Shown here: in pieces, positions 21,994-64,000 of the stretch | How the letters are laid out: the number at the start of each line of letters is the position of its first letter | Position numbering within the stretch: position 1 is the stretch's first letter | DNA from: a virus | Direction: 5' to 3' (one strand) | IMG/VR virus record: IMGVR_UViG_3300023202_000163 | Coordinates: 14,117 to 78,116 of that record | DNA: 64,000 nt | Program-made: the position numbers and the translations under genes | The notes under the pieces: model-generated | Seen by the model: only the letters and a program-made list of their open reading frames with translations | What the model was told of the DNA's origin: nothing | Database searches by the model: none

Positions 21994-22971
21994 GTGGAAC
22001 CTAAAAAATATCAATTTAAAAATATAGCACCAGAATTAAGCGTTAAGATGTTTGAAGATCATGCCCTATTGTATGAATCTTACGTTGAGCGCTTAAACAG
22101 CACTATGGAGAAACTTTCTAACCCTTACGACCCAGAATTAATCAGATCGGCAGCTACTTCTGGGGGCCCATTCCGCGGGATGCATGAGGACAGAACATAT
22201 TTAACCAACGCTGTTTTATTGCACGAATTGTTTTTTGAAAACGTTATACTACCTCCTGATAGCCCGCCTATGACTGTAGGTCCTATGTTTTCTTCCTTGC
22301 TTCAGGAATATTATCCTAATTTAAAAGCTTCTGACTTTTGGTCCCATATAGTGAAACCTATTGCCAAAGCAGCAAGAGGTTGGTGTATAGTAGGCTGGGA
22401 TACTATTCAAGCCAAATTAACGGTTTGCATGATAGACGATCATAATACTAATATAATTATAGGGTGCTATCCATTATTGGTAATTGATGTCTGGGAACAC
22501 GCTTACACACAGCAATATGGAATTGATATAGGAACCTATTTAGACCATCTTTATCGAAGCGTAAATTGGAGCGTAGTGGAACACAGAGTTGCTACGGTAC
22601 ATAGTGCTTCCGAAATGATGCGAACGGCTGTGCCTGAGGAAGCTGAGGATTATATCAGGGATATGCAGAAGCAACACAGAGAAGATTCTGAATTTGGCTT
22701 CCCTGATGAAAATTATTTTGAAAGTGGAGAACTGCCGCAAGGAGGAGGGCTGGATACTAGGCAAGAAGAGGCTATTAAACAAAACCCCAGAGTACATAGT
22801 TCTGTAACCACCGCAGATTTGGAAGCTGCTTACGATAAAATTAAATTATTAAGTAAGGTAAGTTTTTCTCAAACTTTTGAAGATTTATTTGACTCTGAGG
22901 TGAGAGGAAAAGATAAAGATTTTAGAGAAAAATTATGGTCTATGTTAAGAGAAGAACAGGAAGATAAATAA
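21994..22971 (+). CDS. sod: Fe/Mn superoxide dismutase family protein with acidic C-terminal extension
   Basis: Four metal ligands present (EDH, LLHELFF, DVWEHAY), plus RGW and VNWSVVEHR; about 120 extra C-terminal residues. Confidence 0.9.
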   Translation: MEPKKYQFKNIAPELSVKMFEDHALLYESYVERLNSTMEKLSNPYDPELIRSAATSGGPFRGMHEDRTYLTNAVLLHELFFENVILPPDSPPMTVGPMFSSLLQEYYPNLKASDFWSHIVKPIAKAARGWCIVGWDTIQAKLTVCMIDDHNTNIIIGCYPLLVIDVWEHAYTQQYGIDIGTYLDHLYRSVNWSVVEHRVATVHSASEMMRTAVPEEAEDYIRDMQKQHREDSEFGFPDENYFESGELPQGGGLDTRQEEAIKQNPRVHSSVTTADLEAAYDKIKLLSKVSFSQTFEDLFDSEVRGKDKDFREKLWSMLREEQEDK

Positions 22972-23961: not shown

Positions 23962-24705
23962 GTGTCTAATGAGCCCCATATAGTGTTAGGTGAGGTAGTG
24001 TCTGCTACTTCCACGGTAGAAGCATACAAAAAAAATTATAAATATGAGAAAAGTAACGGAATTACCGCCAGCGTTTTGGAGGGTAAAAATACTTCCGCTT
24101 CCGGATCTTTTAAAAGAGATATTGATGTTTCTTGGTTAGCAGCCGCTGCCGATACTTATCATATAAGCGCGGATATAAATGATTACGTTATTGTTGACAT
24201 ACCTTCTGTTACAATAGATATACCTAATAGAAATCTACAAGCATTTCCTTACGAAGAAGTATCATACTTCGATAATATGCAAGGAAGTCTAGTTTACCAG
24301 ACTTTTGTTGGCAGGCCTACGCATATAGACCACCAAAATTCCAACCCCGTGGAGGCCAAAGGTGTACATTTCGATGCCGCCTTGCAGTATGTCCCTAAAT
24401 ACAATGTTTGGAAAATACGAACGCTTGCGGGCTTTGATAGAACCAAAGATCATAAACTTGTGGCTGACATATTAAGTGGGCGCAGCAATGGTTATTCTAT
24501 GGGAGCACTTGTCCAAAATTTCGTCTGTTCTAACTGCGGGAAAGTAGAAACTGTGAAAAACCCATGTAGATGTATGGCAATGGGAAAGGGTTCTATAATC
24601 GATGGAAGACTAGTTTACCAGCTTTGTGCTGGCGTGCAATATTTTGAACAATCTTCTGTATCCGATCCAGCAGATCCCACAGCTATTTCAGACTCTGTGC
24701 GGTAA
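23962..24705 (+). CDS. Prohead (capsid maturation) protease
   Basis: PNRNLQAF, TFVGRPTHIDHQN, GYSMGA (catalytic Ser), CSNCG, EQSSVSDPADPTA; position between portal and scaffold. Confidence 0.8.
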   Translation: MSNEPHIVLGEVVSATSTVEAYKKNYKYEKSNGITASVLEGKNTSASGSFKRDIDVSWLAAAADTYHISADINDYVIVDIPSVTIDIPNRNLQAFPYEEVSYFDNMQGSLVYQTFVGRPTHIDHQNSNPVEAKGVHFDAALQYVPKYNVWKIRTLAGFDRTKDHKLVADILSGRSNGYSMGALVQNFVCSNCGKVETVKNPCRCMAMGKGSIIDGRLVYQLCAGVQYFEQSSVSDPADPTAISDSVR

Positions 24706-24724
24706 TTACAGGAAATTTAACCTA

Positions 24725-25912
24725 ATGTCATATAATCCTGAAAAAATAGAGGCTGGAAAAGGACCTACCAGAACACAAGGGCCTGGAAAGGCTAGTGACA
24801 CTGTTAGAACTATGCGGAAAGTTAGCCGCGAACAAAATATGGGAGGTCCATCAGGAGGCCCTCAGGGCACAAAAAAAGGGAAAAAGGGCTATACACGAAA
24901 ACAAAAACATAAGGGGCAAGATACCGCGCAGAGCGGAGAGCTTACAGAAGTGGATGAGACTTTTAGGCATATGAATTTTCCCCTTGCCCAAAACTGGGAT
25001 GATTACGCTGAAGCAAGGCCTTGTGGCGAAGGAGAAGATCCTAGAATTGGGCACTGTAATCCCAATACTTCTCCTCCTAGTGAGCCTGAAGAAATTATGC
25101 TGGAAGATGAATATGTACCTGAAGAAATTATGCTGGAAGATGAATATGTACCTGATGATAAATTAATAAATTTGATAGAAAGCCCCAGCGAATGGAAGCA
25201 ACCTTCACCCAGAGATAGAGGGAGAGATGACATGAGTTTTTACGATAGAACCACATTACATGGTAATAAAATTTCCGCCAATTGGGGAAGTCTCGTAGAA
25301 TCTCGTCCTTGTGGGGACCAAGAAAAGTATCCAGAAAAGTGCGGAGAAGACTCTGATGGATCTTCTAATTATCCAGCTATAAAAGCCCCCAAAGCTCCCT
25401 CTTATCCGCAGCAAACCGGTAGACCTCCTCGACCTCTTAACGATTACGATAGGCAATGGCACGATGTTGCTTATTACTTAGGCGATACAGATTCGTATTC
25501 AGAACTAAAAGAGAGGGCTGAGGATTTAGGCCTGCACGGAACAGACACCGAAGAACTTGTAGATTATTTGGTTGACGAACAAATGCCAGTTTATGAAGCT
25601 TTAGAAATTTTACAAGATCATTATCAAGAAAAATGGGAAAAAGAAAATCCTGATCCATATAAAGGAACAGCCATGTTTAGAATAGCAGCAGATCTTAGTT
25701 GGTCTACTCATAAACCAGAAACTTTTGAAGATACAGGAGAGGATGGTTCCTTTCCCGCCTGGGGACTTAAATCTATCATAGACAGAGGCGTAAAGCCTCA
25801 CGAGAAGCCCAAGGGTGATAAGAATATAAATCCGGATACGCAAACACAAAGGAGAAAGATTTCTAAGAAAAGTTTTAAATCTTATTCAATGTTTGAAGAT
25901 TTTAATGAGTAA
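24725..25912 (+). CDS. Acidic, largely disordered putative internal head protein
   Basis: ATG at 24725 preferred to the overlapping 24626 start. Contains two RPCG..E...C motifs, a tandem repeat and an AADLSW tag. Confidence 0.7.
   Translation: MSYNPEKIEAGKGPTRTQGPGKASDTVRTMRKVSREQNMGGPSGGPQGTKKGKKGYTRKQKHKGQDTAQSGELTEVDETFRHMNFPLAQNWDDYAEARPCGEGEDPRIGHCNPNTSPPSEPEEIMLEDEYVPEEIMLEDEYVPDDKLINLIESPSEWKQPSPRDRGRDDMSFYDRTTLHGNKISANWGSLVESRPCGDQEKYPEKCGEDSDGSSNYPAIKAPKAPSYPQQTGRPPRPLNDYDRQWHDVAYYLGDTDSYSELKERAEDLGLHGTDTEELVDYLVDEQMPVYEALEILQDHYQEKWEKENPDPYKGTAMFRIAADLSWSTHKPETFEDTGEDGSFPAWGLKSIIDRGVKPHEKPKGDKNINPDTQTQRRKISKKSFKSYSMFEDFNE
25085..25155 (+). repeat. Exact 33-nt tandem duplication (PEEIMLEDEYV x2)
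   Basis: CCTGAAGAAATTATGCTGGAAGATGAATATGTA twice, then CCTGA. Confidence 0.95.
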
Positions 25913-25978: not shown

Positions 25979-26626
25979 ATGATGAATGATAAAAAACCTT
26001 ATGGAATTATTTACGTTTTAACAAGTCCGAGTGGGAAGCAATATGTTGGGCAGACTGTGCAGTCTGTGGAAAAAAGACTACTGTCTCACAAATCAGAAGC
26101 TAAAAAAAGTAGATCTGAACATTTACCTTTATACAGAGCAATAAAAAAATATGGAATAAATGCATTCACTTATGAAACTATAGATAAAGCGTATAGTAGA
26201 GAAGAGTTGGATTTCTTAGAAAAACACCATATTTCTACATTAGGTACGCAAGAAACTGGATTAAACGTAGATGCGGGAGGCAGAGGCCGAAGCGGATTTA
26301 AACTAAATGATAAACAGACAGAGGCATTATATATATCAAACAGTAAACCAAAAACAAAAGAGCATAAAGCTAATATATCTAGGTCACACAAAGGAATGAA
26401 AAAACCTTGGGTTTGTACTCGAAATAAACAAGGATTAAGCAAAGAAACAAGACAAAAAATTAGTGAAACTCTTAAACAGTTTAATTCTAAAAGAAAAGAA
26501 AATGAAATATTTCCACATGGTGAACCTCGTGGATATTGGCGCGGGTGTAAATGTGTTATGTGTAAAAAGGCGGCAGCCTCTTATGCTTTGAACAATAAAA
26601 AGAATAGGAAAAGAAGAAATGGATGA
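25979..26626 (+). CDS. Free-standing GIY-YIG homing endonuclease with NUMOD3-like repeats
   Basis: GIIYVL...YVGQT...RLLSH...LYRAIKKYG; TKEHKANIS and SKETRQKIS; C-terminal HG...Y..GCKC..C. Confidence 0.9.
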   Translation: MMNDKKPYGIIYVLTSPSGKQYVGQTVQSVEKRLLSHKSEAKKSRSEHLPLYRAIKKYGINAFTYETIDKAYSREELDFLEKHHISTLGTQETGLNVDAGGRGRSGFKLNDKQTEALYISNSKPKTKEHKANISRSHKGMKKPWVCTRNKQGLSKETRQKISETLKQFNSKRKENEIFPHGEPRGYWRGCKCVMCKKAAASYALNNKKNRKRRNG

Positions 26627-26759
26627 ACGATCAAAAAAATTAGCTGGTGGTCTTAAGTGGAGTGTTTTAGGATACGGACATGGCGGGCAGCACTACAACC
26701 CCCACGTCTCAAAACCCGTTGCTTTGGAACCTATCGGCGAAGAAGGCGGCTATCATTGA
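26619..26759 (+). CDS. 46-aa ORF not in the track (MDERSKKLAGGLKWSVLG...)
   Basis: ATG overlaps the end of the GIY-YIG gene; carries an AGGLKW version of the recurring LxW tag. Confidence 0.45.
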   Translation: MDERSKKLAGGLKWSVLGYGHGGQHYNPHVSKPVALEPIGEEGGYH

Positions 26760-26785
26760 CCCCGCGGGGTCAATGATAGCTTCTT
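26749..26785 (+). terminator. Perfect 32-bp palindrome followed by TTCTT, possible terminator
   Basis: GCTATCATTGACCCCG CGGGGTCAATGATAGC at 26749-26780. Confidence 0.55.
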
Positions 26786-26877
26786 AAAGGTTTTTAGTTT
26801 ATTATTTCGGTCCGCCCCCCGATTACGGGGGCTCATACGGTCTCTATAGCGATGGGGACACTACCATATCTTGCCCA

Positions 26878-27123
26878 ATGGCGCAAGAAGTGTACAGCCC
26901 TATGAACGGCAAGCCCATGAAATACGTGGGACCTACTTCTGTTGAGGACGTTAAAAAAGCCTTATCTGGCTCTAAATTTTCGAAATTGTTACATTCTTGC
27001 CCAGAATGCTCCCATTCCTATGTTACTTCATCTGACTATGTTAAGGCACTTTCTTGCCCTGCTTGCGGCACAGCAAACGAGTACGGATCCGCCTTAATGA
27101 GGGGGAGAAAAAGCAGAGCATAG
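26878..27123 (+). CDS. Zn-ribbon protein (true start uncertain)
   Basis: CPEC...CPACG; the frame stays open upstream to 26788. Confidence 0.6.
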   Translation: MAQEVYSPMNGKPMKYVGPTSVEDVKKALSGSKFSKLLHSCPECSHSYVTSSDYVKALSCPACGTANEYGSALMRGRKSRA

Positions 27124-27308: not shown

Positions 27309-29603
27309 ATGGATCTAAACAAAGTACGAAAAGCTCTAGGACATGATGTTAAAGCAGGGACCCCCGGAGAACTTGACCCCGCTGTCGGGCCCGGTGGCGG
27401 AACCCATAACACCGATATAGAAATTGCCGACGATGTGGTGAAACTAGTAGACACTAATTCCCCCGACACGAAAGACCTTGAGACTCGTGCATACGAAGGA
27501 GGAACCGAAGAAGACGGAACTCTTCCTCCTTATGACGGAGAATCTAGTGTTGATGGAATTCCCACTATCCCGGACACACTAGCGGCTGCCGAAGGTAGCG
27601 ACGCTGGGGACAAACAAAAAAATAAAGGTGGCGGTGGTCCTTCAGTACAACTGCCCGATACATTGGAGGATGAAGTGGCCGTGGATCCTAAAGACCCTCA
27701 CGCATCTGCCGCAGTTGCACTAACAACTGACGACGTTTCAGATCTTAGAAAAATTATGGCAGAGCCTACTTCTGAGAATATCAAGAGGGCTGTAGCGGCT
27801 CTACAGTGGTTAGACAGAAATCCTCGCCACGCCAAGCGTTCCACAGTGCAGGCCGGCATCGACAATTGGCAGCCTACTTTAGCACAGGCTAATGAGACCC
27901 AGGCTCGCTATGGTTTCGAATATTTACATACAGAAGCTGCTGCGGAAAAGGGTAATTCTGAAAAAACTAAAAAAGTAATGTCTTGGCTGAAGAAATATCT
28001 AACATCCAAAAAGATTTCTATAGCCCGAGAATTTCTCTCTTCCGAAGAGGCTAAAACCAACAAAGAACTAGCACGACAGATAAGAGCATGGCTTGTAGAG
28101 GCTGTGGATCAGGTTACTGAAAATAAAGAAGATGTAGGACTGGAAGACATCACTCTGTACGGGCCTCAAAATGGAAGCTCTGCTCATCTACCAGGAAAGG
28201 AAGATGGTGGTTTTACAGAGCCTAAAGTTGTGTCTGTTGAGGACGTACCGTTTAAAGACCCCGCCCGACACCCCGCAGAAGCAGGAGCAGAGGTAGACGA
28301 GCAAACAGGTTCTCCTTCCCAGGATCCTGAGGCTGTTGATTCTGACTCTTTCAAAGCAAAAAATCACGATCGAGCCAAAGAAACTCATACACCGACTGCT
28401 GGCAAGAAAGCCCATGCTATGGGTATGGGTATGGACATGGGGCATGCTATGCCGGAAGAAGTAACAGAACCTCCTGTTCCTGGCATGCCCGGACCGATGG
28501 GTGCTCCCGAAGAGGCTCCGCTTCCTCAGATGCCGGGCATGGATCCTGGTATGGACCATGGTTTAGGACTAGAGCCACAAGAAGGCCTACCCCCAGTCCT
28601 TCCTGAAGAAGGCGACCCTGCTGCGGCTATGGGCCCAATGGGTGGTCACGGCGGAGGTGCTCCTATGGCTCCGGCCGCTGGACCGGACGCAGATCACAAT
28701 ATGGGAGATATGGGCCAATCCCTAGAGGAATGGCTACAGGAGGAGCTTATGGAACCCGGTCACCAGGACCCTGCTGAGTCCGCTCATGTAGAAATGCTTT
28801 CTAACTTTGATGAAATTGGCCCTGTTACTTCTGATGATGTTGTAATGGCCCTTTACGGTGAGGATCAGGAGAATCCACACTGGAATATCGACATCAAGGG
28901 AAGACCAGTGGCTCGCGTTGAGCTGTCAGATCAGCCCAAGCCTGAGGAAGTAAGAAGTACATTCCTAAGTGCTCCTTACGCTGAGAATATCGCCCAAGCC
29001 ATGGCAAAGGTAGGTGTTTCTGAGGTTCTTGAAGCTATCAATGCTAAGCCCTATGCTGCTAAAGTAGAAGTAGGTGCCTTGGCGGATAAAATCCGAGCTA
29101 AGGTGGCTGCGGAACACGAAGCTAAGTACGCAAAAGCAGTAGGGGAACTTAGAGAAAGATTCTTGACTGCTGCTAAAATTGCCCTATCTGGTTATAACTC
29201 TAATTTCTTCAGAGGTGAAGATCATCAACTCAAAGCTGCTCTTTGGAGCGAGCTGAAGAGACTCGGTGTTCGTGATGCTGCTGGAGTTATAGAAGCTTCT
29301 TTTGAGGAAGGAGCAGTACCGTTCTTTGAGGCGGTACTCTCCAAGGCTGAAGAACTGATGGATCTGCCTACGGAGGCTCGCGAAGCCATTGCTAGAGCTA
29401 TCCCTCAGAGTAATGCCCTTGTGGCGGCAAGTGCCGACTCCGGGGAAGAATTGCCCGAGCACGAGACTCTCGCCTCTGTTCTGGAATCGGGGAATGTACC
29501 TTTTACAGCTCCTAGAGCTGACAATCAGGTAATTTCTTCTCGATCCGAGTTCCGAGACGGTCTACGAGCCCGGGTTCGTCTATCAACGTATCGGTCTAGC
29601 TAA
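27309..29603 (+). CDS. Capsid scaffold/prohead core protein
   Basis: 764 aa, acidic and Pro/Gly-rich with helical C-terminus; between protease and capsid genes. Confidence 0.65.
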   Translation: MDLNKVRKALGHDVKAGTPGELDPAVGPGGGTHNTDIEIADDVVKLVDTNSPDTKDLETRAYEGGTEEDGTLPPYDGESSVDGIPTIPDTLAAAEGSDAGDKQKNKGGGGPSVQLPDTLEDEVAVDPKDPHASAAVALTTDDVSDLRKIMAEPTSENIKRAVAALQWLDRNPRHAKRSTVQAGIDNWQPTLAQANETQARYGFEYLHTEAAAEKGNSEKTKKVMSWLKKYLTSKKISIAREFLSSEEAKTNKELARQIRAWLVEAVDQVTENKEDVGLEDITLYGPQNGSSAHLPGKEDGGFTEPKVVSVEDVPFKDPARHPAEAGAEVDEQTGSPSQDPEAVDSDSFKAKNHDRAKETHTPTAGKKAHAMGMGMDMGHAMPEEVTEPPVPGMPGPMGAPEEAPLPQMPGMDPGMDHGLGLEPQEGLPPVLPEEGDPAAAMGPMGGHGGGAPMAPAAGPDADHNMGDMGQSLEEWLQEELMEPGHQDPAESAHVEMLSNFDEIGPVTSDDVVMALYGEDQENPHWNIDIKGRPVARVELSDQPKPEEVRSTFLSAPYAENIAQAMAKVGVSEVLEAINAKPYAAKVEVGALADKIRAKVAAEHEAKYAKAVGELRERFLTAAKIALSGYNSNFFRGEDHQLKAALWSELKRLGVRDAAGVIEASFEEGAVPFFEAVLSKAEELMDLPTEAREAIARAIPQSNALVAASADSGEELPEHETLASVLESGNVPFTAPRADNQVISSRSEFRDGLRARVRLSTYRSS

Positions 29604-30558: not shown

Positions 30559-31695
30559 ATGGCTAAGAATCCTTATTTAGCACGTCCGGCTTATGTCGGT
30601 CGTAATGGGGACGCCCTAACCGACGGCGGCGCTCGGGCTGGTCGGCGTAATCCGCGTTCCGGCACCATGATTCAGTCTTCTACTGAGTCACTAGTTGCAG
30701 GTAACGGTGAATTAAATGCCGGCTCTAAGCGTGAGCTTATGCAGGCAATTGCGTCTCTACAGAACATGGTACAGGCTGGCGATGTACGCAGAGCCACCCC
30801 ACAGGAGCAGTACGGTGATATCGTACAGGCTCGTAGAGAACTTGTAGAAGCAGCTTACGCTGATAAAAACGGCGAGGGTTGGCAAGTTCTAGGTGAAGTA
30901 ATCGGTGAAGAAATCTGGGAAACCTTAGGACGTGAAGGTTTCGCTCGGAAGACCCTTCTTATCAAGCCTCTGGGCAAAGGTGAGACTGGTCGTCTGCGCG
31001 TTCGACGTAAGGATGTTATCTCGTTCTTCGTAACGAGTGACCCTAACGTGATTGCGTCTCAGGTTCGCCAGTTCTACATCTACCCACCCGAGTTCTATCT
31101 GATTGCGCACATCACGCTTGAGGACAAAGAAATCGAGCAGGCTTCCGGAGACCTTCTGGACGACAAGTACCAGGACGGACTTGAGCAGATCATGGTTCGT
31201 GAGGACAACGTATGGCGTAATCTAATTAACGCTGCTGCGGGTGCTTCTAACGACTTGTTCCTGTTCAACACCTTTACACCGACTGTGTTCTCTACCATGA
31301 GAACGCAGATTGCTCGGTGGGGTATTCCGGTAACCGGTGCAATCATTGCATTCGATCTCTGGGACGACATCATTGCTGACACCGAGTTCAGCACTTGGTT
31401 CGACCCGGTATCCAAGCACGAGCTTGTTCTTGAAGGCTCTCTTGGTAACATCCTTGGTGTTAACCTCATCACGGACGCTTTCCGACACGATACCTTGCAG
31501 GTTCTACAGCCCGGCGAAGTTTACTTCGTAGGTGCTCCGCAGACCCTTGGTGGTATCACTCAGCGGAAAGAGCTAGCTACCGAGTCCATCAACAAGTACA
31601 ATCAGGGTAAACCTGAGCGTGGTTGGTTCATGGAAACCATCGAGGGCATGTCAATTGTGAACTCAAGAGCTGTCACAAGGGGCAATAGAGTCTAA
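30559..31695 (+). CDS. Major capsid protein
   Basis: 378 aa, strongest codon bias in the window, GAGGAG RBS; HK97-type motifs REGFARKTL, PPEFYLIA, IMVRED, GNILGVNLITD, PGEVYFV. Confidence 0.85.
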   Translation: MAKNPYLARPAYVGRNGDALTDGGARAGRRNPRSGTMIQSSTESLVAGNGELNAGSKRELMQAIASLQNMVQAGDVRRATPQEQYGDIVQARRELVEAAYADKNGEGWQVLGEVIGEEIWETLGREGFARKTLLIKPLGKGETGRLRVRRKDVISFFVTSDPNVIASQVRQFYIYPPEFYLIAHITLEDKEIEQASGDLLDDKYQDGLEQIMVREDNVWRNLINAAAGASNDLFLFNTFTPTVFSTMRTQIARWGIPVTGAIIAFDLWDDIIADTEFSTWFDPVSKHELVLEGSLGNILGVNLITDAFRHDTLQVLQPGEVYFVGAPQTLGGITQRKELATESINKYNQGKPERGWFMETIEGMSIVNSRAVTRGNRV

Positions 31696-52341: not shown

Positions 52342-52698
52342 ATGCAAAATTCTAATAAAATTTATATAGATCGTTATACAATTGAGGCGGGAAAAGAATG
52401 TTCAGATTGTTTAAGATGGTTTGTTCCTATATTTAAAAATAGTGATCCTTGTCCGCATTGTGAAAGATTAGGGGTACCTAATTATCCTAACCGAATTAGG
52501 TATTTAGCAATAAAAGCGGGAATATCTTTAAGAGACATTGCTAGAATATCAAAAATTTCTTGGAGAACCATTCGTTTAGCCTCCCAGGGTGAAAGAGATC
52601 CTCATCTTACCACGAAAAGAGAAATAGCAAAAGCTTTAGGAATGTCTATCAGAAAGACCGACATAGCTTACATATTTCCCCATGGAAGGAAAATGTAA
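52342..52698 (+). CDS. Zn-finger plus XRE-type HTH protein
   Basis: CSDC...CPHC; NRIRYLAIKAGISLRDIARISKISWRTIR...EIAKALG. Confidence 0.75.
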   Translation: MQNSNKIYIDRYTIEAGKECSDCLRWFVPIFKNSDPCPHCERLGVPNYPNRIRYLAIKAGISLRDIARISKISWRTIRLASQGERDPHLTTKREIAKALGMSIRKTDIAYIFPHGRKM

Positions 52699-53270
52699 TG
52701 AAAATATGTTGGAAAAGAAAAATAGAAGCAGATTACAGTTATGCGTCTACACAGGTCAACCTCCCAGAAGATGTTTCTAAAAAAATCATAAGGTGGGGAA
52801 AAGAAAATATTGATGACGATGATATAAAAGAAGATGAGGAGGACGACTCTATGGGAAGAGAAGACACTCCCCATTGTACGATTCTATACGGTATTGTTGA
52901 TAATAATGTAGAACCTGTTAAAAATTTATTAAAATACGAAAAACCGATAGAAGCAGAACTTGGAAAAATATCTGTATTCACTGGTGATGAATATGACGTA
53001 GTTAAAATAGATGTAAAATCCAAAGATCTTCATCGTTTACATAAAAAGCTAGCAGATAATATAGAGAACGAAAATAAATTTCCAGAATACAAACCACATG
53101 TAACAATTGCTTATGTAAGTCCAGGAAAAGGTAAGAAATACTCCGGAAGTTTAGAGTTTGAAGGCATTAAATTAACCTTTAATAAAATACGATTTTCTTC
53201 AAAATCAGAAGAAGTAAGCTATATTTATTTAACAAAAAATATAGCTTCCAACTTAAATTGGAAAGTATAG
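52698..53270 (+). CDS. 2H phosphoesterase, T4 57B/Acb1-like
   Basis: Two HxT motifs: GREDTPHCTILYG and FPEYKPHVTIAY. Confidence 0.85.
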   Translation: MKICWKRKIEADYSYASTQVNLPEDVSKKIIRWGKENIDDDDIKEDEEDDSMGREDTPHCTILYGIVDNNVEPVKNLLKYEKPIEAELGKISVFTGDEYDVVKIDVKSKDLHRLHKKLADNIENENKFPEYKPHVTIAYVSPGKGKKYSGSLEFEGIKLTFNKIRFSSKSEEVSYIYLTKNIASNLNWKV

Positions 53271-56708
<3,438 letters not shown>

Positions 56709-57001
56709 AGTTGTCTTTAGATTTATCGACTGGGGAGATAATAATATTGCCTGTCTTTTAGGTATTATCTACAGGGGATGTTATAATATTACCTGTAATG
56801 GTAGGATACACCTTTGAAGCTATAGAGGCATCATGTTATCTTGTTTGTCGCTATCTTCCGGAAGAGGCTGCTGATGAAGTTAGGCCATTAGAAGCTTCTA
56901 GAGAAATCCCTAAAATCTGGCCTTTTCATTTAGATTTTAATTAAAAAAATTGGAGTTAATTATATCTGTAATTAGTCAACAGCACAATAATAGGGGCAAA
57001 A

Positions 57002-57241
57002 ATGGACATACGAGATTTAAGTTGGAAGAAAAAAACTGGAGGTAACACACTAATAGCCGAAATTGAAAAATTAGCAGAAAAAGTAAAAGTACCTGCGGGA
57101 AAAAGAAGAGATTTAAGATGGATGGCTAATAATCTTAGATCTTTGGCAAAAAAAGATAAAGTATGTTGCTGCGAAATGAAAGTATTAATCAGTTATGTAG
57201 ATTTGGCCCTACAGCAAGGTATAAATTCCCTTAGTGAATAG
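57002..57241 (+). CDS. Small basic protein with N-terminal DLSW tag
   Basis: MDIRDLSWKKK; AGGGG RBS. Confidence 0.7.
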   Translation: MDIRDLSWKKKTGGNTLIAEIEKLAEKVKVPAGKRRDLRWMANNLRSLAKKDKVCCCEMKVLISYVDLALQQGINSLSE

Positions 57242-57266
57242 ATTATATATTAATGGGGTACTTTAG

Positions 57267-57518
57267 ATGCTTGCTAAAAACTTAAATTGGAATACAGTAA
57301 TTTCTGCCAACAAACGTCTAATGCGGCGTTTGAAAAAAGGGCGATATGAAGGCATTTGTAAAAGCGGTAAAAGAGTAAGAATAGATGAAATTGATGGAAA
57401 ATGGGAACTTTATTTCGGTACTGAATTTTTAGGAAAGTATCCACTTAAGAGAACTGCCCTAAAAAAAGCTAATGCGTTATTAATTTCTGAGGAGTGCGAT
57501 AAAGAAAAATATGAGTAA
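57267..57518 (+). CDS. Small basic protein with N-terminal AKNLNW tag
   Basis: MLAKNLNWNTVISA. Confidence 0.7.
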   Translation: MLAKNLNWNTVISANKRLMRRLKKGRYEGICKSGKRVRIDEIDGKWELYFGTEFLGKYPLKRTALKKANALLISEECDKEKYE

Positions 57519-62672: not shown

Positions 62673-63493
62673 ATGCCTAATCCATCGCCTCAATAGGGGC
62701 CTTCAGGGAGAAATCCTTGTTGCAAATTCGGTGAATTCGGGGAAACCCCAAACAGATAAAGCTGTGGGCAATCCCGAGCGAAGCCAAGAGGGAAACTTCT
62801 TGGAACGTGTAACGACTAGACCAGAGCCTAAAGCTTAAAGCCATGGCAGTAATGGTCACTCTGTTAGAGTAATCTTCCAGAGAAGCGCCGGACATCCGTA
62901 AGGATGATGATATAGTCTGAGCCACAGTGAAACCTGTGGAGGTTGGCAGAGATGACCAATCCCGTCTTTTTGACGAGTAACAAAACCTGTTTGCTACTAA
63001 TGCATTCGACGTAACCGTTCAGCCCCTTGAACAAGGAGCTGCTGGTGCCCCTACGACTAAAACCTACCATGGTTTGTCTATAGTCGTTGATGGAAATATT
63101 GTAGGTCGAATACAGTCATGGCAACCAAATGCTTACACTCGTGAAGGTAATCATATCAGAGAACTGTCGCACGTAACTTGGGGCCGTCCTATCGATTACG
63201 TGCCTGGACAAGCTACTGGCTATACCATCTCCTTTACCAGGGTTGAAGTATGGAATCAGGAGCTAGAGTTGACTCTAGGCTTTGGTGCCCTGTTTGACGA
63301 TTTAATGGACCAAACTAGACCTTGGGTAACACAAGAATATCTGTTCAGGGGAACAGAATTGAATAAACTTTGGCAGTATAGTGGATGCTGGTTTACTTCG
63401 AAAAATAACAACAACTGGGAAGCAAGTGGGGATCCTACTATTACAGTAGAGGCGGAACTAGCTTATGTTTCTCGTTTAAGAGTGGCGGGATAA
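62673..63493 (+). CDS. Tail tube protein, spliced (exons 62673-62690 and 62990-63493; 173 aa)
   Basis: GGAGGA RBS, MPNPSP joins in frame to FATNAFDVTVQP...GLSIVVDGNIVGRIQSW; tube-like motifs IRELS, YSGCWF; follows the sheath gene. Confidence 0.85.
62691..62989 (+). ncRNA. Group I intron, 299 nt, no ORF
   Basis: P1 GCCU/GGGC with U.G at the 5' splice site; P3 UUCGGUG/CGCCGGA; P4 UUCGGG/CCCGAG; P7 GACUA/UAGUC within GAUAUAGUC; P8 CAUCC-GUAA-GGAUG; P9 hairpins; terminal G at 62989. Confidence 0.9.
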
Positions 63494-63497
63494 TATA

Positions 63498-64000
63498 TTG
63501 TCCTGGAGAAGAAGAAGAAATAGTAATAAACGTAAAAGTAAAGCTGTAGCGTATAACTTATGTTGGGCTACATTCTCTAAAGAAGCTTTACCTTCTAGTT
63601 TGACGGACAATCCGCAGGATTCTGACGATGCTGTCGATCATTCAGAAAAACAAGACGGAAAAGCGACTAATTCTTATCCACACTCTAGAAAAAAAGTAAA
63701 AAGTTTCACAGCTTACGCAACCGATTGGGATACCTTATTAGATTCTAACGGAATCCCTACCGACGGTACTCCTCCCGATCCGCTACAGTCACAAAAAATG
63801 GCAGAACAGATGGAAATACCTTCTATAGACGAGGAGGGTCAGGGACTTGGACAAGCTCCAGGTAGTGGGTCACCCCAAACCCCTCCGGGATTAAAACCAA
63901 CTCCCCCTGGGGCTCATGATAAAGCCGCTCAAAAAAGAAGAGCAGGCCGAGGGATAGAGGGCGAAGAAGGTGCAGGTTTAGGGTGCAGCACTGGCCCATC
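63498..64000 (+). CDS. Partial ORF running off the window, disordered, with two LxW tags
   Basis: TTG start, LSWRRRRNSNKRKSKAVAYNLCWATFSKEA..., no stop before 64000. Confidence 0.7.
   Translation, partial: MSWRRRRNSNKRKSKAVAYNLCWATFSKEALPSSLTDNPQDSDDAVDHSEKQDGKATNSYPHSRKKVKSFTAYATDWDTLLDSNGIPTDGTPPDPLQSQKMAEQMEIPSIDEEGQGLGQAPGSGSPQTPPGLKPTPPGAHDKAAQKRRAGRGIEGEEGAGLGCSTGP

Follow-up and report, generated by a model that had tools for sequence, protein, structure and literature searches.

A short tryptophan-centred peptide, which we refer to as the tag, recurs on otherwise unrelated late proteins encoded by a 64,000-nt stretch of viral DNA. This stretch, the window, comprises bases 14117-78116 of the 78-kb virus contig IMGVR_UViG_3300023202_000163, and all coordinates given here are positions in it. 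Comparison of orthologues showed that the tag is kept by selection at the protein level, and structure predictions showed it on flexible N- or C-terminal extensions or within a disordered protein. We consider it highly probable that the tag is a functional docking peptide shared by its carriers. Loading into the head is our best guess as to its role because two of the carriers derive from a conserved protein whose gene lies between those of the prohead protease and the major capsid protein; from the gene arrangement, the prohead is a tentative destination that may well be the correct one.

The original prediction listed eight tag-like strings, at 25685, 26643, 52698, 53244, 57008, 57273, 63498, and 63549, and all of them translate as described. 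They fall in six open reading frames (ORFs), namely 24626-25912, 26619-26759, 52698-53270 (at both ends), 57002-57241, 57267-57518, and 63498 to the end of the contig (two copies). The carriers and their tags, with isoelectric points (pI) where calculated, are as follows.

24725-25912, + strand: disordered acidic protein, pI 4.9, its gene immediately following that of the prohead protease (likely ATG start at 24725; longest frame from 24626).
25682-25702, + strand: internal tag copy of the acidic protein, I-A-A-D-L-S-W.
26619-27123, + strand: Zn-ribbon protein in two frames (26619-26759 and 26878-27123).
26640-26660, + strand: N-terminal tag of the Zn-ribbon protein, L-A-G-G-L-K-W.
52698-53270, + strand: 2H phosphoesterase, Acb1-like/2'-5' RNA ligase-like, 190 aa (assigned from Pfam, PHROG 755, and AlphaFold2 [AF2]).
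52698-52712, + strand: short N-terminal tag form on the 2H enzyme, M-K-I-C-W.
53241-53267, + strand: C-terminal tag of the 2H enzyme, I-A-S-N-L-N-W-K-V, then stop.
57002-57241, + strand: ORF 57002, basic protein of 79 aa, pI 9.5, no known family.
57002-57028, + strand: N-terminal variant tag of ORF 57002, M-D-I-R-D-L-S-W-K, without Ala.
57104-57121, + strand: second R-D-L-x-W copy inside ORF 57002 (R-R-D-L-R-W; R35, D37, and W40 invariant).
57267-57518, + strand: ORF 57267, basic protein of 83 aa, pI 9.8, no known family.
57267-57296, + strand: N-terminal tag of ORF 57267, M-L-A-K-N-L-N-W-N-T, with the motif from codon 2.
63498-63998, + strand: ORF 63498, Pro/Gln/charge-rich disordered protein running past the contig end.
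63498-63506, + strand: short form at the start of ORF 63498, a TTG start then S-W.
63546-63572, + strand: tag near the ORF 63498 N-terminus, V-A-Y-N-L-C-W-A-T, kept in all four genomes.

For comparison we used three uncultured IMG/VR jumbo-phage contigs of 184-267 kb (G001-G003), which are close, syntenic relatives of the window contig and encode carrier orthologues that are 45-90% identical. The motif occupies the same position in every carrier's orthologue in these genomes. Of the consensus originally proposed, A-x-[ND]-L-x-W, the Ala, Leu, and Trp proved to be the invariant residues of the tag in the orthologue comparison, whereas the [ND] position tolerates N, R, E, Q, S, T, H, or Y and ORF 57002 has no Ala. 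The corrected consensus spans nine residues, hydrophobic-Ala-x-x-Leu-[Asn/Ser/Cys]-Trp-x-[Val/Ile/Thr], and its core is carried by five unrelated proteins: the acidic disordered protein, the Zn-ribbon protein, the 2H phosphoesterase, ORF 57267, and ORF 63498. With the variant in ORF 57002 and a possible tag on a SAM-lyase-like protein described below, the carriers may number five to seven. Their only mutual local similarity consists of the 7-12-residue tag stretches.

Counts within the 78-kb contig are weak evidence because the pattern was picked post hoc: L-x-W is seen 23 times versus 23.5 expected, [ND]-L-x-W 6-7 times versus 2.6 expected, and A-x-[ND]-L-x-W 3-4 times versus 0.16 expected. 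Validation therefore came from the independent genomes. The strict motif [ILVM]-A-x-x-L-[NSC]-W has 3-6 matches in each of the four genomes, all confined to the same five families, versus an expectation of ~0.1 per 60,000 residues with 25,000-84,000 residues scanned per genome and 59,000-84,000 in each of the three relatives. A back-translated DNA pattern had 15 matches in G001-G003 (two of which are a tRNA) versus 2 for the reversed control. A position matrix found 23 sites scoring at least 15 versus 0.2 in shuffles, and five of these 23 were outside the training set, comprising the remaining acidic-protein orthologues and one new N-terminal candidate. Finally, a minimal core of hydrophobic-[NSC]-W lies inside the first 15 residues of 25 ORFs versus 8.5 expected. 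The codons encoding the tag vary between copies, which use five Leu codons (CTT, TTA, CTC, CTA, and TTG), both Asn codons, and several Ala codons; selection therefore acts on the peptide and not on the DNA. We found no description of a Trp-type packaging motif in jumbo phages in the literature.

AF2 models give the tags a predicted local distance difference test score (pLDDT) below 50-60 and the domains one above 85-90, placing the tags outside folded domains, on what are predicted to be flexible ends. In the 2H enzyme the core (residues 13-180) is modelled with pLDDT above 90, and residues 1-12 and 184-190 are below 50. The first 19 residues of ORF 57267 are modelled at low confidence, without secondary structure, and precede a confident domain of five strands and a helix.

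The description of the 52698-53270 product as an Acb1-like enzyme was correct: it matches PF13563 (48.3 bits, cut-off 27) and PF23474 (Acb1; 37.3 bits, cut-off 27), and both of its H-x-T/S motifs, His59/Thr61 and His134/Thr136, are invariant in 73 homologues. Judged by its sequence the enzyme may hydrolyse cyclic nucleotides or repair RNA, the two roles being equally open. Among 111 homologues, 35 are close (at least 48% identity) and 76 are distant. All 35 close homologues carry the C-terminal tag with Ala, Leu, and Trp 100% conserved, while the linker columns before it are variable (26-74% conserved); in G001-G003 the ending reads [IL]-A-[SA]-x-L-[NS]-W-x-[VI], then stop. The C-terminal tag is absent from all 76 distant homologues, which end just past the last domain strand. 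At the other end of the protein, 24 of the 35 close homologues begin M-x-hydrophobic-x-W and four begin with a long form, M-x-L-A-K-x-L-[SC]-W-K-V-E, that is almost the peptide with which many ORF 57267 homologues start; the distant homologues begin directly at the core without an N-terminal extension. Because 35/35 close but 0/76 distant homologues have the tail, it is well supported that the tag was grafted onto a pre-existing, widespread 2H family in this phage clade only.

ORF 57267 orthologues in G001-G003 begin M-L-A-x-x-L-N-W, and among its full-length metagenome homologues L-[NH]-W is present in 20/21, the Trp in 21/21, and the Leu in 95%. In ORF 57002, residues M1, D2, R4, D5, and W8 are at least 90% conserved among 27 aligned homologues. 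We class this protein as a variant, or as belonging to the tag family only doubtfully, because the Ala is absent and all 79 residues are well conserved. Neither of the two small proteins had a Pfam or PHROG match, a significant Foldseek match in the PDB, or a usable Atlas match. Two 23-nt direct repeats (56732-56754 and 56774-56796) lie 42 nt apart in the gap upstream of ORF 57002; they have no further copy in the window (0.01 expected) and may be a regulatory or promoter element.

In ORF 63498 orthologues the motif reads [VIL]-A-x-x-L-[CN]-W-[AT]-T, and the surrounding 40 residues barely align. The starts of these orthologues also resemble the short form, with M-S-W in G001 and [FI]-N-W-T-T at residues 7-11 in G002 and G003. 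A possible seventh carrier, which would also be a second candidate defence-countering enzyme, is a 148-aa SAM-lyase-like/DUF3293 protein with a tag-like N-terminus found in G002 (L052:11251-11697) and G001 (G001:5222-5665). It matches PF11697 just over the cut-off and PF23780 just under it, and it begins M-D-L-A-Y-Q-L-L-W-K-T in G002 and I-V-Q-Q-L-L-W-K-T in G001. By contrast with these, an N-L-V-W near the C-terminus of a 944-aa glycosyltransferase was rejected as an extra copy, being a conserved part of the last helix region without the Ala-x-x spacing. Taken together, orthologue conservation, the clade-only graft, the position outside predicted folds, and the lack of other similarity among carriers bear out the proposal of a portable label, and on these comparisons one label on unrelated proteins, mostly at their termini, is real.

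Three genes of the head module give context for the destination of the tag.

23962-24705, + strand: prohead maturation protease (PHROG 18299, E = 3e-57).
27309-29603, + strand: 764-aa acidic head-module protein (PHROG 20988).
30559-31695, + strand: major capsid protein (PHROG 2522, E = 1e-63).

The protease shares 37-42% identity with its counterparts in Dickeya JA29, Erwinia Alexandra, and Yersinia Yen9-02, and the capsid protein is 33-36% identical to jumbo-phage capsid proteins of BcepSauron, JA29, Peetri (Pseudomonas), and Vibrio GR11A. BLASTP with the 764-aa protein matched P0200 (E = 4e-36) and JA29 gp132 (E = 1e-12). The module also encodes a 239-aa virion protein, and its order of protease, acidic carrier, Zn-ribbon carrier, 764-aa protein, virion protein, and capsid protein matches that of the JA29 head module. 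By sequence comparison the window contig is a fragment of an uncultured jumbo phage because of the identity of its capsid protein and protease to those of cultured jumbo myoviruses, the JA29 gene order, and the synteny with G001-G003.

Two carriers are encoded within this module. The tag of the acidic protein is kept in the orthologues of G001, G002, G003, L062, and L063; the motif reads [IV]-[AV]-A-x-L-[SNT]-W-S-T in G001-G003, and a second full copy is present upstream in G002 and G003. Overall the number of tag copies in the acidic carrier ranges from one to three, and an R-P-C-G-x9-10-C module comes after each. The window protein has two units of a W-motif plus R-P-C-G-x9-10-C, and an exact tandem repeat in which E-E-I-M-L-E-D-E-Y-V-P occurs twice. 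JA29 gp133, the positional counterpart of this carrier, was considered as a homologue and rejected, having no similarity to it and no tag.

In the orthologues of the Zn-ribbon protein the tag reads L-A-x-x-L-N-W-K-V at residues 6-14. We found 57 representatives of this family among 1.8 billion proteins and inspected 52 N-termini, of which only those of the closest three (P0163, P0164, and P0170) carry the tag; the other representatives have a different start and align only from residue 20 on. Gain of the tag by the widespread Zn-ribbon family is therefore well supported, on these alignments, as restricted to this clade, as with the 2H enzyme. Most relatives have the Zn-ribbon module at the N-terminal end of a ~700-aa protein whose C-domain matches the window 764-aa protein and JA29 gp132. 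A conserved head-module protein has therefore been split in this clade, and the split-off piece gained the tag. The acidic and Zn-ribbon carriers are fused in one frame in L062 (6681-8369) and in P0164. Many of the distant homologues P0172-P0216 begin [ST]-A-W-W-[KR]-Y-N-P, and another group begins V-E-G-R-T-S-L-Y-N-P, so the head-module protein's N-terminus varies by clade.

The two frames of the window Zn-ribbon gene lie on either side of a palindromic insert of ~46-49 nt: G-G-Y-H is followed by a TGA and a perfect palindrome, and beyond the ~46-49 nt the other frame continues from Y-F-G-P-P-P. The G003 protein is a whole 150-aa ORF, uninterrupted at this point, and in G001 a continuous frame (132 aa from stop to stop) crosses the break point without the tagged N-terminal stretch. 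The break fits either programmed bypass or a recent insertion. In the G002 gene (L007, G002:55016-58033) and in L063 an intein lies after H-Y-N-P-H-V and before S-K-P-V-A-L-E-P, and the intein in the G002 copy suggests that the Zn-ribbon gene is important.

These data lead us to the following model. The tag would be a portable short linear docking motif, read in all its copies by one common partner, and this partner would lie within the assembling prohead as part of the core or scaffold, the interior of the shell, or the portal. The acidic protein, with its one to three copies, and the Zn-ribbon protein would form or join the head core. The cargo, possibly delivered with the DNA, would comprise the 2H enzyme, ORF 57002, ORF 57267, ORF 63498, and perhaps the SAM-lyase-like protein. 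The tag would be active at either end of a protein and would not need to be cut off, unlike the T4 signal. The basic character of ORF 57002 and ORF 57267 (pI 9.5 and 9.8) was counted in favour of head loading, as T4 internal proteins are basic.

Several observations weigh against the prohead as destination. No homologue of any carrier was found in cultured phages. No protease cleavage site is conserved beside the tag in orthologues or homologues, leaving T4-style clipping unsupported. A scaffold role for the acidic protein would be assigned by gene position only. The distant relatives G004 (protease 41% and capsid protein 43% identical) and L065 have the same protease and capsid protein without the tag or the cargo genes, showing that the head module can do without it; G004 has neither the carriers nor a shared tag, and neither the same tag nor a co-varying one was found in L065 or L059. 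Lastly, the carrier genes lie 3.8-32 kb from the capsid gene: those of the Zn-ribbon and acidic proteins are just upstream, the 2H gene is 21 kb and ORF 63498 32 kb downstream, and the 2H gene, ORF 57002, ORF 57267, and ORF 63498 are among fibre and tail genes, outside the head module. The capsid-import address system of the original prediction is plausible from the two carriers in the protease-to-capsid interval, with the four carriers among fibre and tail genes speaking against it.

The parallel drawn in that prediction was bacteriophage T4, in which the conserved capsid targeting sequence (CTS) is found on diverse defence-countering internal proteins (PMC3012670), including IPI, IPII, IPIII, and Alt (PMC3012670; Mullaney and Black 1996, cited in PMC10052503). 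Like the CTS, the tag is a short, evolutionarily portable peptide common to unrelated proteins of a large myovirus, one that builds its head with core proteins, a prohead protease, and a capsid protein of HK97 type, and its carriers include small basic proteins and enzymes that possibly counter defence. Placement of a peptide of ~10 residues at the extreme N-terminus, a trait of the CTS, is found in ORF 57267, the Zn-ribbon protein, and ORF 57002, and for the short form in the 2H enzyme and ORF 63498. Unlike the CTS, the tag is Trp-centred, lacks a Leu/Ile-x-Glu cleavage site, and can also be C-terminal or internal, the best-conserved copy being the C-terminal one of the 2H enzyme and the copies of the acidic protein being internal. 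To our knowledge the CTS has no Trp, which we treat as a lead only. The original prediction had also proposed Ala-ending sites (KIEA, VISA, and SKEA) and removal of the tag by the prohead protease, and neither is supported: these sites change or are lost among orthologues, and in KIEA the Ala is the residue with which the conserved 2H core begins. Following the tag, neither a Glu nor any other site is conserved, W-x-V-E being present in only some homologues, and the tag can be internal or, in one case, stand at the very C-terminus.

A second parallel is the encapsulin cargo-loading peptide, which is short and conserved, follows a variable linker on a floppy terminus, and suffices to dock cargo inside an HK97-fold shell (PMC8346489, PMC8229669). 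The C-terminal tag of the 2H enzyme is laid out in just this way, and residues 1-19 of ORF 57267 are likewise predicted to be disordered. The consensus is different from that of encapsulin cargo, the shell is a virus capsid with scaffold and protease, and the cargo genes do not adjoin the shell gene. By analogy, then, the tag resembles the T4 CTS and the encapsulin peptide in how it may work and is a member of neither class. In the phiKZ-like phage SPN3US, also a giant phage, with a T4-type prohead protease and numerous ejection and head-internal proteins, substrates of the gp245 protease are cleaved after A-x-E, have propeptides of 20-254 residues, and have only the cleavage motif, and no docking peptide, in common (PMC10052503). 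Our phage is not phiKZ-like, its capsid protein being nearest those of BcepSauron, JA29, and Peetri.

The bacterial sliding-clamp-binding peptide and the C-terminal tail of single-stranded DNA-binding protein are cases in which one terminal peptide on many proteins is read by a single hub. The tag is comparable in being one short peptide, mostly terminal, on many unrelated proteins, and it differs in its sequence and in that its carriers belong to late and structural modules rather than to replication and repair. Such systems bring us to the alternative that fares best, in which the same docking peptide is read outside the head, by a tail, baseplate, or collagen-fibre part, by the tetratricopeptide repeat (TPR) region of the 944-aa enzyme, by a chaperone, or at a condensate-like site formed by the acidic protein. 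All evidence that the tag is real applies equally to it. The neighbours of the 2H gene, ORF 57002, ORF 57267, and ORF 63498 are genes for collagen-like fibres and others presumed, from size and position, to encode tail sheath and tube. The gene of the TPR-bearing 944-aa enzyme, a methyltransferase-glycosyltransferase fusion, lies 3 kb upstream, and terminal peptides are common ligands of TPR domains. The presence of two carriers, pieces of a conserved head-module protein, in the protease-to-capsid interval argues against a reader outside the head, which we judge unlikely while giving it serious weight.

We think it improbable that the tag is a degradation or protease-recruitment signal, either a degron for a host AAA+ protease or an exosite bringing substrates to the prohead protease, that times removal of the carriers. 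Terminal, floppy, hydrophobic-aromatic peptides are typical degrons, most carriers have the tag at the extreme N- or C-terminus, and the gene of the multi-copy acidic protein follows the protease gene. Such a signal does not fit the internal copies that the acidic protein and the L062 fusion have, however, destruction tags at both ends of one enzyme seem wasteful, and we know of no resemblance to ClpX, Lon, or ssrA-type signals.

That the tag has no common function, and reflects chance together with ordinary conservation of a terminal structural element in each family, is very improbable. The pattern was picked after looking, L-x-W is not enriched (23 versus 23.5), and ORF 57002, which is conserved throughout and lacks the Ala, may be unrelated. 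Against this stand the nine aligned positions common to five families, the absence of matches elsewhere in four genomes, the clade-limited gain in two old families, the location of tags outside predicted folds, and the near-identical long forms on unrelated proteins.

A conserved DNA or RNA element that is incidentally translated (a promoter, ribosome-binding context, or recombination site) has a negligible chance of being correct: 53250 and 57279 share the same 14 bases and one tag ends 3 nt short of the next gene start, but the 14-mer is not enriched at up to two mismatches (3 seen versus 1.9 expected) and the Leu, Asn, and Ala codons of the tag differ among orthologues, a synonymous variation that refutes any reading as a DNA or RNA motif. 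Two narrower candidates were also rejected. An N-glycosylation sequon (N-x-S/T) at the Asn-Trp-x position fits some copies only, Lys, Asn, and Arg being found there too, and a PDZ-like C-terminal ligand (Trp-x-Val-COOH) leaves the N-terminal and internal copies unexplained.

Returning to the prohead as destination, we put forward with some doubt the specific possibility that this clade uses a Trp-centred, unclipped, either-end head-loading code distinct from the T4 CTS, in which core proteins use the code and enzymes that may be delivered acquired it. Were this true, the injected toolkit of the phage could be read from its genome, and foreign proteins might be packaged in capsids by means of the tag. 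As a loading tag it would predict which small proteins are delivered to the host at infection, and it would be usable at the C- as well as the N-terminus. If the reader lies elsewhere, the tag would point to an undescribed hub-and-motif system in phage late development. In SPN3US ~80% of head proteins are uncleaved and without a known signal (PMC10052503). How giant phages choose their head proteins is largely unknown, and a portable peptide would make the question testable.

Some neighbouring genes are of additional interest. ORF 63498 is preceded by a highly conserved gene for a 139-aa protein (63074-63493) that had no family match and is taken, by its position after the large 59080-62196 gene, to encode the tail tube. 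In the more distant relative L058 (L058:10413-12191) a homologue of this protein (52% identical) is followed by a 593-aa protein with three tandem S-F-W-Q repeats near its N-terminus instead of the tag. The superoxide dismutase-like protein encoded upstream of the prohead protease was rejected as a carrier, as the motif-like stretch seen in G002 and G003 is not preserved in the window orthologue. Its gene, at 21994-22971 and two genes upstream of the protease, encodes an Fe/Mn superoxide dismutase C-terminal domain (PF02777, E = 8e-16).

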